Sequence record: NC_041919.1
Direction: 5' to 3' (one strand)
Source: Escherichia phage HP3
DNA: 64,000 bases
Numbering within the stretch: the first letter of the stretch is position 1; every line of letters begins with the position of its first letter. This document shows, one piece after another, positions 9,505-13,212 of the stretch. Below the pieces are notes generated by a model, which was not told where the DNA came from, searched no databases, and worked only from the letters and a program-made list of their open reading frames with translations. Made by a program: the position numbers and the translations under genes.

Positions 9505-9978
9505 ATGTTATTGACTGGCAAATTATACAAAGAAGAAAAACAGAAATTTTATAATGCACAAAACGGTAAATGCTTAATTTGCCAACGAGAACTAAATCCT
9601 GATGTTCAAGCTAATCACCTTGACCATGATCATGAATTAAATGGACCAAAAGCAGGAAAGGTACGTGGATTGCTTTGTAATCTCTGCAATGCCGCAGAAG
9701 GTCAAATGAAGCATAAATTTAATCGTTCTGGCTTAAAGGGACAAGGTGTTGATTATCTTGAATGGTTAGAAAATTTACTTACTTATTTAAAATCCGATTA
9801 CACCCAAAATAATATTCACCCTAACTTTATTGGAGATAAATCAAAGGAATTTTCTCGTTTAGGAAAAGAGGAAATGATGGCTGAGATGCTTCAAAGAGGA
9901 TTTGAATATAATGAATCTGACACTAAAACACAGTTAATAGCTTCATTTAAGAAGCAGCTTAGAAAGAGTTTAAAATGA
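9505..9978 (+). CDS. 49: endonuclease VII (Holliday-junction resolvase)
   Basis: 157 aa, CLICQ..HLDHDHE..CNLCN zinc/His motifs; size and sequence fit T4 gp49. Confidence 0.85.
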   Translation: MLLTGKLYKEEKQKFYNAQNGKCLICQRELNPDVQANHLDHDHELNGPKAGKVRGLLCNLCNAAEGQMKHKFNRSGLKGQGVDYLEWLENLLTYLKSDYTQNNIHPNFIGDKSKEFSRLGKEEMMAEMLQRGFEYNESDTKTQLIASFKKQLRKSLK

Positions 9979-11792
9979 CAATTGAAAAAGAAATTGAAGG
10001 ATTGATTCATAAAACTAATAAAGACCTTTTGAACGAGAATGCTAATAAAGATTCTCGTGTTTTTCCAACTCAACGGGACCTTATGGCTGGTATTGTGTCT
10101 AAACACATTGCCAAAAATATGGTCCCGTCTTTTATTATGAAAGCGCATGAAAGCGGAATTATTCATTTCCATGATATTGATTATTCCCCTGCTCTTCCAT
10201 TTACTAATTGTTGTTTAGTAGATTTAAAAGGAATGCTTGAGAACGGATTTAAGCTTGGTAATGCGCAGATTGAAACTCCTAAATCAATCGGTGTTGCTAC
10301 TGCAATTATGGCACAAATTACTGCACAGGTTGCTTCCCATCAATATGGCGGAACGACTTTTGCGAATGTAGATAAAGTACTTTCTCCTTATGTTAAACGC
10401 ACATATGCAAAACATATTGAGGATGCAGAAAAATGGCAAATCGCTGATGCGTTGAATTATGCTCAATCTAAAACAGAAAAAGACGTATACGATGCATTCC
10501 AAGCTTATGAATATGAAGTAAATACTCTCTTTAGTTCAAACGGACAAACACCTTTTGTAACAATTACATTTGGTACGGGAACTGACTGGACTGAACGAAT
10601 GATTCAGAAAGCAATTCTGAAAAATCGTATTAAAGGTCTTGGTCGTGATGGGATAACTCCTATTTTCCCTAAGCTTGTTATGTTTGTTGAAGAAGGTGTT
10701 AATCTTTATAAAGACGATCCGAACTATGATATTAAGCAGCTTGCTCTAGAGTGTGCAAGCAAAAGGATGTATCCTGATATTATTTCAGCTAAGAACAATA
10801 AAGCTATCACTGGTTCATCTGTTCCTGTTTCTCCAATGGGTTGCCGTAGTTTCTTGAGCGTATGGAAAGATTCGACTGGTAATGAAATTCTTGATGGACG
10901 TAATAATCTTGGTGTTGTAACACTGAATCTTCCTCGTATTGCGTTGGATTCTTATATTGGAACACAGTTCAATGAACAGAAATTTGTTAAATTATTCAAT
11001 GAGCGAATGGATTTATGTTTTGAAGCTTTGATGTGTAGAATTAGTTCCTTAAAAGGAGTTAAAGCGACTGTTGCTCCTATTCTTTACCAAGAAGGTGCAT
11101 TCGGGGTTCGTCTTAAACCTGATGACGATATAATTGAGTTATTTAAAAATGGTAGAAGTTCAGTGTCTTTAGGATACATTGGTATTCACGAATTGAATAT
11201 TCTTGTCGGTCGTGATATTGGACAGGAAATTTTAACTAAAATGAATGCTCGTCTTAAACAGTGGACTGAAAGAACTGGGTTTGCTTTTAGCTTGTATTCT
11301 ACTCCTGCTGAAAACCTTTGCTATCGCTTCTGTAAACTTGATACAGAAAAATATGGAAGTGTAAAGGATGTTACTGATAAAGGCTGGTACACTAACAGTT
11401 TCCATGTTTCAGTAGAAGAAAATATTACTCCGTTTGAAAAGATTTCTCGCGAAGCCCCGTATCATTTCATTGCAACAGGTGGTCACATTTCTTATGTTGA
11501 ACTTCCTGATATGAAAAATAACTTAAAAGGTCTTGAGGCTGTATGGGATTATGCTGCACAACATTTAGATTATTTTGGTGTTAATATGCCAGTAGATAAA
11601 TGTTTTACGTGTGGAAGTACCCATGAAATGACTCCTACTGAAAACGGGTTTGTTTGTTCTATTTGTGGAGAAACTGATCCTAAAAAGATGAACACAATAA
11701 GAAGAACATGCGGTTATTTGGGAAACCCGAACGAACGCGGATTTAATCTCGGTAAAAATAAAGAAATCATGCATAGGGTTAAACACCAATGA
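9975..11792 (+). CDS. nrdD: anaerobic ribonucleoside-triphosphate reductase NrdD
   Basis: 605 aa, C-terminal glycyl-radical motif RRTCGYLG and Cys cluster CFTCGS..CSICG; uninterrupted frame. Confidence 0.95.
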   Translation: MTIEKEIEGLIHKTNKDLLNENANKDSRVFPTQRDLMAGIVSKHIAKNMVPSFIMKAHESGIIHFHDIDYSPALPFTNCCLVDLKGMLENGFKLGNAQIETPKSIGVATAIMAQITAQVASHQYGGTTFANVDKVLSPYVKRTYAKHIEDAEKWQIADALNYAQSKTEKDVYDAFQAYEYEVNTLFSSNGQTPFVTITFGTGTDWTERMIQKAILKNRIKGLGRDGITPIFPKLVMFVEEGVNLYKDDPNYDIKQLALECASKRMYPDIISAKNNKAITGSSVPVSPMGCRSFLSVWKDSTGNEILDGRNNLGVVTLNLPRIALDSYIGTQFNEQKFVKLFNERMDLCFEALMCRISSLKGVKATVAPILYQEGAFGVRLKPDDDIIELFKNGRSSVSLGYIGIHELNILVGRDIGQEILTKMNARLKQWTERTGFAFSLYSTPAENLCYRFCKLDTEKYGSVKDVTDKGWYTNSFHVSVEENITPFEKISREAPYHFIATGGHISYVELPDMKNNLKGLEAVWDYAAQHLDYFGVNMPVDKCFTCGSTHEMTPTENGFVCSICGETDPKKMNTIRRTCGYLGNPNERGFNLGKNKEIMHRVKHQ

Positions 11793-12421
11793 ATTATGAC
11801 AGAATCTATTCAAATCTAGTTAATTCTGCTGAACACCCATCTAAGCCCCGTCAAACTAAAGCCGGGTATGAACTTCATCATATAATTCCAAGAAGTATGG
11901 GTGGTTCAGATGATTTAGACAACTTAGTATTTTTAACTTATAAGGCCCACTATACTGCTCACCATTTATTGGCTAAAATATATGGTGGAAAGATGTATGA
12001 TGCATATTGGATAATGAGTAATAGTAAGCATAGAAAAGTTACTTCTTCACAATACGCGTATGCAAAAGCTAAGAAATTTGAAAATCAGCGTGGCGCAAAA
12101 AGAAGCGATAAAACTAAGAAGCTAATGAGCATAGCTAGGTCTAAAGTAACTCTTCCTGATGATTTTGGAAAAAGGATATCTGATGGGCTAACAGGAAGAA
12201 CTTTGTCTACTAGTCATAAAGAGCATATCAAAAATAGTTCTAGAAATCGCTTTAACACCAAAACGGTTATTGGCTATTCACCAGACGGAAATACAATAGA
12301 ACTAACTGGAGCAACTGAAATAAGAAATGCAGGATTTTTTCATTCTGCTGTTTATAAATGTTGCAAAGGAATTCAATCTATTCATAAGGGATATACTTGG
12401 AAATATAAAGATGAATTATGA
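11789..12421 (+). CDS. mobC: HNH homing-endonuclease-like protein (mobC-like)
   Basis: 210 aa with HHIIPRSMGGSDDLDNLVFL..HYTAHH HNH motif; sits between nrdD and nrdG; starts with the same seven residues as nrdG. Confidence 0.8.
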   Translation: MNYDRIYSNLVNSAEHPSKPRQTKAGYELHHIIPRSMGGSDDLDNLVFLTYKAHYTAHHLLAKIYGGKMYDAYWIMSNSKHRKVTSSQYAYAKAKKFENQRGAKRSDKTKKLMSIARSKVTLPDDFGKRISDGLTGRTLSTSHKEHIKNSSRNRFNTKTVIGYSPDGNTIELTGATEIRNAGFFHSAVYKCCKGIQSIHKGYTWKYKDEL

Positions 12422-12433
12422 TAGAATTTATCC
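11789..12433 (+). mobile_element. HNH endonuclease insertion flanked by 23-nt near-duplicate of the nrdG 5' end
   Basis: ATGAATTATGACAGAATCTATTC (11789-11811) vs ATGAATTATGATAGAATTTATCC (12411-12433), 20/23 identical. Confidence 0.6.
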
Positions 12434-12881
12434 ATGCGATTTCGTTAACGGCCCTGGATGTAGGGTCGTTCTCTTCGTCACTGGATGTTTGCATAAATGC
12501 GAAGGTTGTTATAATCGTAGTACTTGGAATGCTCGTAACGGACAGTTATTCACTATGAATACCGTTAAAGAACTTGCGTCCCATTTAAGCAAATCGTATA
12601 TCCAAGGCCTTACCTTAACCGGTGGTGACCCACTTTATCCACAGAACCGAGAAGAGATTTCAAATTTAGTTTCTTGGGTTAAAGCAAGATTTCCTGAGAA
12701 AGACATTTGGTTGTGGACAGGATATAAGTTTGAAGATATTAAACAACTAGAAATGCTTAAATATGTTGATGTTATTATTGATGGGAAGTATGAGAAAAAT
12801 CTTCCGACCAAAAAGCTGTGGCGAGGATCAGATAATCAGCGACTTTGGTCAAATACCGATGGGGTGTGGACACATGATTAA
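12411..12881 (+). CDS. nrdG: anaerobic RNR activating protein NrdG (radical SAM)
   Basis: 156 aa from ATG 12411; CxxxCxxC cluster (CLHKCEGC); overlaps mobC stop. Confidence 0.9.
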   Translation: MNYDRIYPCDFVNGPGCRVVLFVTGCLHKCEGCYNRSTWNARNGQLFTMNTVKELASHLSKSYIQGLTLTGGDPLYPQNREEISNLVSWVKARFPEKDIWLWTGYKFEDIKQLEMLKYVDVIIDGKYEKNLPTKKLWRGSDNQRLWSNTDGVWTHD

Positions 12882-12996
12882 ATTGAATTACATTATGGAT
12901 ACTATAAATGATATGATTTTTCATTTTGGTCCAGAATTTTATTCGCAGTATAGTTTAGTGCTTATCAATGCTTGGTTAATCAATTAAGGGTAAAAT

Positions 12997-13212
12997 ATGT
13001 ATAAATTTCGTAAAGGTTTAGCTGATTTTCTTACAACTGTAACGTTCTTTCTGTTTATGGCAGTTGGAGCTATTTTCCTTATTCCTTTTATTGCTATATT
13101 TTTCGTGATTAGTTTGATTTCTCCAGAAAAGAGTTTATCTTCTAGCGAGTTCAATGAGCGTCTGGATAAAATTACTAACAAGCTGAATTCTGTTCTTGAT
13201 AAAAAGGCTTAA
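12997..13212 (+). CDS. hypothetical membrane protein (71 aa)
   Basis: ORF with central hydrophobic segment. Confidence 0.45.
   Translation: MYKFRKGLADFLTTVTFFLFMAVGAIFLIPFIAIFFVISLISPEKSLSSSEFNERLDKITNKLNSVLDKKA

Follow-up and report, generated by a model that had tools for sequence, protein, structure and literature searches.

mobC between nrdD and nrdG in Escherichia phage HP3: a probable homing cassette whose Mob-family start resembles that of nrdG

Phage T4 MobE is an HNH endonuclease encoded between the ribonucleotide reductase (RNR) genes nrdA and nrdB. It nicks the 5′ end of nrdB and brings about co-conversion, the donor being protected by host polymorphisms (PMC2790892). A second T4 gene, mobC, is annotated as an 'H-N-H family homing endonuclease'. 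The stretch analysed here (the window: 64,000 nucleotides (nt) of Escherichia phage HP3, record NC_041919.1, a T4-like phage on the strand opposite to the T4 map) harbors this same gene: the open reading frame (ORF) at 11789-12421, between nrdD and nrdG, is T4 mobC (ORF 55.10; NP_049689). The match amounts to 98.7% nucleotide identity (over 1.5 kb) and 209 of 210 amino acids (aa), residue 143 being S in HP3 and N in T4, and the flanking genes and the overlaps with them are the same. A sequence-only reading had described the ORF as an HNH gene inserted together with a duplicated 5′ end of nrdG. We argue instead, with a probability of roughly 0.65, that mobC is a free-standing homing gene of the Mob family that targets nrdG and forms a cassette with a resistant nrdG 5′ allele, the start shared by the two proteins serving as the left arm. 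The features mapped from nrdD to nrdG lie on the plus strand of the window.

The assignment to the HNH nucleases, made from the letters alone, stands. The family PF01844 (HNH) matches MobC with 26.9 bits, above the gathering cut-off of 21.4, and PDB HNH domains align to residues 25-58. A separate homologue search gave 12 distant relatives, MobC itself not among them, and H30, H31, N45, H54 and H58 are invariant in an alignment of MobC with 12 distant homologues (A1). The catalytic motif spans residues 28-58 (ELHHIIPRSMGGSDDLDNLVFLTYKAHYTAH; 11870-11962). In an AlphaFold model the predicted local distance difference test (pLDDT) score exceeds 80 at residues 1-100, and residues 3-12 form a helix of the HNH domain (pLDDT 92); the C-terminal half is poorly modelled. 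Residues ~155-207 (12251-12409) comprise a putative DNA-binding module (pLDDT 53-73) with weak likeness to the NUMOD-like helix-turn-helix of the homing endonuclease I-HmuI and weak sequence matches to PF22083 (E=0.043) and to 1u3e (E=0.34).

The first 23 nt of mobC (codons 1-7, MNYDRIY; 11789-11811) match the true 5′ end of nrdG (MNYDRIY P..; 12411-12433) at 20 of 23 positions, as had been noticed. Even when 3 mismatches are allowed, the 23-mer is confined to these two sites in the 64 kb, and none of 100 shuffles matched. The mobC ATG overlaps the nrdD stop in ATGA (11789-11792), also as described, but the mobC stop does not sit on the nrdG ATG: its TGA (12419-12421) lies 8 nt downstream of that ATG (12411-12413), in nrdG codons 3-4. 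The 3′ end of mobC (..D E L stop) and nrdG codons 1-4 overlap by 11 nt (12411-12421), and what ends at position 12433 is the repeat rather than the ORF. As to the proposed preservation of translational coupling, the ATGA overlap is kept on the nrdD side; on the nrdG side coupling is plausible, the start lying 8 nt upstream of the mobC stop, and nrdG may be translated by re-initiation after mobC. The published overlap of mobC with its upstream ORF is 24 bp (PMC2988022); the sequence and RefSeq give 4 bp with nrdD and 11 bp with nrdG. mobC cannot extend further upstream, as TAA occurs in frame 9 nt before its ATG.

These overlaps bear on a first alternative, namely that the shared 5′ sequence is a re-initiation element, maintained by selection or gene conversion because mobC needs it downstream of nrdD and nrdG, in turn, downstream of mobC. 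Neither start has a well-placed Shine-Dalgarno sequence, stop/start overlaps are present at both, and mob genes have poor ribosome-binding sites (PMC2988022). The copies, however, are not homogenised, with 3 differences in T4 and more in Jiaodavirus (TTC vs TAT). RNA secondary structure gave no signal at nrdD/mobC, at mobC/nrdG or at the insert-free junction (z = 0.17, 0.48 and -0.18), so neither mobC junction has significant structure. Moreover, phages of the SHFML-11 type carry mobC without the nrdD overlap, and segH, another homing endonuclease gene (HEG) of this junction, starts with unrelated sequence. We regard this alternative as highly improbable.

The repeat had been taken to exceed chance, which is true against random sequence and much less so against the baseline of other mob genes. 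An exhaustive representative search gave 13,297 family members, and N-termini were compared in a sample of 160 proteins (the 150 best representatives plus earlier homologues), 158 of them longer than 100 aa. Eighty-five of the 160 start with MNY and 88 fit M[ND]Y..[IVL]Y; among the 158, Y7 is found in 133, I6 in 82, K5 in 59 and R5 in 47. T4 MobD, whose gene lies between mobD.1 and nrdC.11, starts with MNYTKVYNNLI, and T4 MobE with MNYQKIYNDLI; MobC likewise carries the family-conserved segment MNYx[K/R]IYxxLI ahead of its HNH core. Homologues with the same N-terminus are found away from nrdG, for example between baseplate genes or between two RNA-polymerase fragments, and in such contexts the family N-terminus is homologous to MobC residues 1-12. 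When compared as DNA with nrdG 5′ alleles, mobD, mobE and two metagenomic homologues already agree at 15-17 of the 23 nt, and mobC at 19-20. The excess specific to mobC is thus 3-4 nt, in codons 4-5 (GAC AGA). D4 is rare, being present in 2 of the 158, one of which (P0069) starts with MNYDRIY and is encoded between baseplate genes, far from any nrdG.

Because of the family start MNYx[K/R]IY, its occurrence in contexts without nrdG, the DNA baseline and the modelled helix, the N-terminus of MobC is native to the Mob family. For the most part, its likeness to the NrdG start (MNYDR[I/F]YPCDF) is a coincidental similarity that the two protein families already had. Escherichia coli NrdG also starts with MNY. 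Among the homologues away from nrdG, P0036 (MNYQRIY...; locus L028, 1416-3681, on a 124-kb TARA marine contig) lies between two ORFs that both match RNA polymerase Rpb2 domain 6; from this arrangement, a homing endonuclease seems to have split a polymerase subunit gene.

A true insertional duplication would require that insertion after nrdG codon 7 duplicated nt 1-23, so that the left copy is wholly derived from nrdG and replaced the endonuclease's own start. The repeat is real, D4 and R5 match nrdG with D4 rare in the family, and HNH-2, a second HNH gene at this site, provides a clear 40-nt case. On the other hand, residues 1-12 of MobC align residue for residue with family members away from nrdG, the model has a confident N-terminal helix, and a paralogue baseline of 15-17/23 leaves little to explain. 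HNH nucleases are not known to make 23-nt staggered cuts, which also counts against duplication. We therefore find this explanation unlikely, and the 23-nt 'duplication' is probably not a nuclease-made footprint. The idea of a duplicated target junction survives only in part: the left 23-mer was not simply copied at insertion, as the Mob N-terminus is native, whereas recombination within the shared stretch did occur. Likewise, a transposon-like target-site duplication is seen in HNH-2 but not in mobC, where the left copy is homologous to the Mob-family N-terminus.

Insert-free relatives have the contiguous nrdD-nrdG junction that the sequence-only reading had expected: most of 836 related phage records are contiguous here (CACCAATGAATTATGATAGA). 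When the 3′ end of nrdD was fused synthetically to the 5′ end of nrdG, this insert-free junction gave single-piece matches in hundreds of genomes of Tequatrovirus and Mosigvirus, and in Sf23, G2540 and TU01 the nrdD TGA and the nrdG ATG overlap as ...CACCAATGAATTATGATAGATTTTATCC. Therefore, mobC is an insertion into an otherwise contiguous junction. It is present in 30 of the 836 records, sporadically and with empty sites in close relatives. Three of the carriers are Jiaodaviruses. Near-identical mobC genes are found in Tequatrovirus and Jiaodavirus, and copies of the gene share at least 99% identity even where the flanks of their phages diverge by 5-40%. Searching IMG/VR and JGI metagenome contigs for exact mobC patterns gave nothing useful, and neither did a protein-guided IMG/VR scan.

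In the 8 records of SHFML-11-type phages, the nrdD tail that precedes mobC is of the segH type and is joined to it at a 10-nt microhomology (CATGCATAGG); a 12-nt T4-type nrdD tail acts as a spacer and there is no ATGA overlap (locus L003, ~1700-1740). The nrdG of SHFML-11 has the segH/HNH-2-type allele at nt 18-42, the rest of the tract being of the mobC type. Further afield, the closest distant homologue of MobC, P0013 (locus L022, 625-1754, on a metagenomic phage contig), has 47% identity and the same GYTW(R/K).K C-terminus. Its gene lies directly upstream of nrdG, with its TGA overlapping the nrdG ATG and no nrdD upstream; therefore, the association of MobC with nrdG appears to be old.

The Jiaodavirus carriers show where the left junction formed. 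In Klebsiella Jiaodaviruses nrdG starts with ATGAATTTCGACAGAATCTACCC (MNFDRIYPS), and a 72-74-aa DUF7415 ORF lies between nrdD and nrdG. This ORF overlaps the nrdG start by ~29 nt in a different frame (KpV477, locus L008, 1701-1919), and in Boboto it runs into mobC instead (locus L004, 1901-2125). The mobC junction was inspected in two Jiaodaviruses, Boboto and Wolf_ER13. From 11788 to 12437, every 50-nt window of their mobC shares 48-50 of 50 nt with the T4 type. The ORF starts with ATGAATTTCGACAGAATCTA followed directly by TTCAAATC... (MNF...): its first 20 nt are those of the resident Jiaodavirus nrdG (20/20), the upstream flank matches at 59/60, and mobC sequence follows thereafter. The crossover falls within an 11-nt identity (GACAGAATCTA), in that nt 10-20 of T4-type mobC (codons 4-7) equal nt 10-20 of Jiaodavirus nrdG and differ from Tequatrovirus nrdG. 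The first ~9-20 nt of mobC thus track the resident nrdG, and from these junction sequences it follows that the resident nrdG supplied the first mobC codons. Apparently, mobC is a chimera: the evidence fits a role of the Mob/NrdG N-terminal resemblance as the left recombination junction.

HNH-2, a 279-aa HNH gene found at the same site in 32 records (TadeuszReichstein, UFV-AREG1 and Roth67 among them), shows the same kind of junction. In Tequatrovirus TadeuszReichstein (locus L005, 1890-2729) its first 40 nt equal the insert-free nrdG allele (40/40). In Jiaodavirus Roth67 (locus L021, 1459-2295) they match the Jiaodavirus nrdG allele at 38/40, with the upstream flank at 60/60. HEG-specific sequence begins at nt 41 in both genera.

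These junctions bear on the possibility of pure coincidence. On this view mobC, with a native MNYDRIY, entered precisely at the nrdD/nrdG boundary, and in the T4 lineage the likeness means nothing for recombination or function. This agrees with the family consensus MNYx[K/R]IY, with P0069 and its MNYDRIY between baseplate genes, and with P0013, which stands upstream of nrdG with baseline similarity only. Coincidence does not account for codon 3 of Jiaodavirus mobC, swapped to the resident nrdG codon by a crossover inside the stretch, nor for the 11-nt exact match of T4 mobC to Jiaodavirus nrdG, which accompanies a Jiaodavirus-like nrdG tract beside mobC; HNH-2, moreover, behaves alike. We consider coincidence improbable.

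On its right-hand side the cassette takes in part of nrdG (12411-12881), which encodes the 156-aa anaerobic RNR activase (PF13353, E=2e-50) and is mosaic in mobC-carrying phages. Between the Tequatroviruses G2540-3, which has mobC, and G2540, which lacks it, identity per 100 nt is 93-100% across nrdD and the downstream genes, falls to 59-69% at nrdG nt ~65-265, reaches 82% over the next 100 nt and then 100%. In all mobC-carrying Tequatroviruses, nrdG nt ~96-296 (12506-12706) constitute a Jiaodavirus-like tract co-inherited with mobC, with 93-98% identity to Klebsiella phage KpV477 and 52-63% to mobC-less Tequatroviruses. The preceding nt 1-90 belong to a distinct 'b' allele, which stands beside mobC in Jiaodaviruses as well. 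The first 300 nt of HP3 nrdG recur at 95% identity or more only in 27 mobC-carrying Tequatrovirus-type records; at this threshold no mobC-less phage has the mobC-linked tract, which would have indicated precise excision via the repeat. The diverged nrdG tract linked to mobC attests to co-conversion of the flank, and the near-identical mobC of the two genera to horizontal transfer between lineages.

Within the 'b' allele, nt 24-114 (12434-12524) carry nine private synonymous third-position substitutions, at sites invariant in the HEG-free Tequatrovirus, Mosigvirus and Jiaodavirus alleles. From these allele comparisons, the target of MobC is predicted to lie in the nrdG 5′ region (nt ~20-115), and nt 24-114 would be the target and immunity region. 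By analogy, the pattern at mobC-linked nrdG matches what is documented for MobE (PMC2790892).

On the reading that we favor, MobC would nick or cut the nrdG 5′ region of co-infecting mobC-less phages, much as MobE does at nrdB. Recombinational repair from the mobC-carrying genome would then copy mobC and, with it, a minimum of ~90 nt from the start of a cleavage-resistant nrdG allele. Since the family N-terminus happens to match that of NrdG, the ~20-nt stretch encoding MNYx[K/R]IY in one gene and MNYDR[I/F]Y in the other would act as the left homology arm, with the crossover falling inside it, and would be used where other left-flank homology is absent. In this way the mobC frame would continue from the start codon of the resident nrdG and take over its ATGA coupling to nrdD, while the functional nrdG start would come from the donor, on the right-hand side. 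The outcome would look as if the nrdG 5′ end had been directly repeated.

Several points weigh against this reading. The activity of MobC is listed as 'ND' and its target as 'unknown', cleavage or nicking never having been demonstrated (PMC2988022), and the position of the target is inferred from allele patterns alone. The T4-type left 23-mer could be of pure family ancestry, as the nrdG-specific signal amounts to 3-4 nt and P0069 has MNYDRIY as well. The spacer in the SHFML-11-type phages argues that coupling of mobC to nrdD is not obligatory.

A broader proposal, which we hold only tentatively, is 'start-codon capture': free-standing HEGs at the nrdD/nrdG junction would be fused in frame to the first 7-13 resident nrdG codons, the captured stretch providing both a translation start, with the ATGA coupling to nrdD inherited, and a portable left homology arm. 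For mobC this would have been possible through Mob mimicry of the NrdG N-terminus, and the changes at nt 24-114 would mark the MobC target. If this were true, the cassette could cross genus boundaries without other left-flank homology.

As for the surroundings, positions 11400-12900 match Escherichia phage HP3.1 with 100% identity and T4 with 98.7%. Gene 49 (endonuclease VII; 9505-9978) is followed by nrdD (9975-11792), the 210-aa ORF of mobC and nrdG. The nrdD gene encodes the large subunit of the anaerobic RNR (PF13597, E=1e-171, plus Gly_radical) as one uninterrupted 605-aa ORF, while the T4 nrdD coding sequence is in 2 pieces, split by the I-TevII group I intron; mobC is therefore present in the HP3 window and the nrdD intron absent. 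Nor is mobC itself encoded in an intron or intein, as nrdD and nrdG are complete and uninterrupted on either side, although no intron RNA search was made. No mob paralogue was found in the window. A promoter for the downstream gene is described as embedded in mobC (PMC2988022). The late-promoter-like TATAAAT within mobC (12353-12359), 58 nt upstream of nrdG, was found by a pattern scan, matches 7 of 8 positions of the T4 late-promoter consensus (TATAAATA) and may be this promoter. In a sigma-70 promoter and terminator scan of 11300-13100, sites were no more frequent than in shuffles.

Taken together, the sequence-only reading was essentially correct in what it observed, apart from the position of the mobC stop, but it overstated the significance of the repeat, and its interpretation is supported in part. 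In the literature searched, from which Sandegren et al. (2005, NAR 33:6203) was missing, we found neither this explanation of the repeat, by a family-native N-terminus and recombination, nor the cross-genus junctions, the mobC-linked mosaic nrdG or the predicted target region. T4 annotations have listed mobC for decades; its likely target is now narrowed to the first ~100 nt of nrdG, and the mobile cassette may be defined as mobC plus a resistant nrdG 5′ allele. The locus provides natural recombination junctions inside a ~20-nt stretch common to an endonuclease and its host gene. It would also illustrate how a selfish gene reuses the start and a few codons of the host gene to move between phage genera.

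The nrdD/nrdG site also accommodates other HEGs. HNH-2 resembles MobC in its homologous HNH core (38% over 60 aa), its start at the resident nrdG ATG, its C-terminal ..WKY(I/K)(N/D)EL and its 11-nt overlap into nrdG. It differs in that a 40-nt (13-codon) resident nrdG copy and a linker of ~12 codons precede the family-homologous region. SegH (phages LZ2, RB3 and U5), a known mobC replacement, occupies the same junction and is likewise linked to a non-standard nrdG 5′ allele. In contrast to MobC, it belongs to another nuclease family (GIY-YIG), has no nrdG 5′ repeat and starts within the nrdD tail. In LZ2 (locus L006, 1493-2323) and RB3 (locus L007) the segH ATG lies in the last nrdD codons (ACATGCATAG) and its TGA overlaps the nrdG ATG; the RB3 annotation names the gene 'segD', starts it 96 codons too late and truncates nrdG. 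A captured nrdD tail was considered for the segH start (ATGCATAGG) and rejected: KEMVKRVKHA and stop aligns gap-free to the T4-type KEIMHRVKHQ and stop. The 10-nt match between segH and the nrdD tail is best read as chance microhomology. In all segH/HNH-2-linked nrdG alleles of both genera (loci L005, L007, L021 and L003), Asp10 of the conserved YPxDFVNGPG motif (12438-12440 in the window) is replaced by Cys (GAT to TGC), a protein-altering change that could confer immunity to cleavage; the allele also differs at nt 18.

Outside this site, the best structural match of the MobC model is I-HmuI (PDB 1u3e), an HNH homing endonuclease of Bacillus phage SPO1, which is the top PDB match in Foldseek (E=3e-3, probability 1.00). 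Unlike MobC, I-HmuI is intron-encoded, and because the alignment covers 82 columns with a template-modelling (TM) score of ~0.22-0.25, the likeness is modular rather than full-length. MobE shares more with MobC: both belong to the same family, have an N-terminal HNH domain (with MNYQKIY in MobE), lie between two RNR genes and overlap the upstream stop with their starts. However, MobE has another C-terminal domain, and its start bears no likeness to that of its downstream gene. The element described here is the known T4 mobC, and its mechanistic details refine a known kind of element rather than define a new one.

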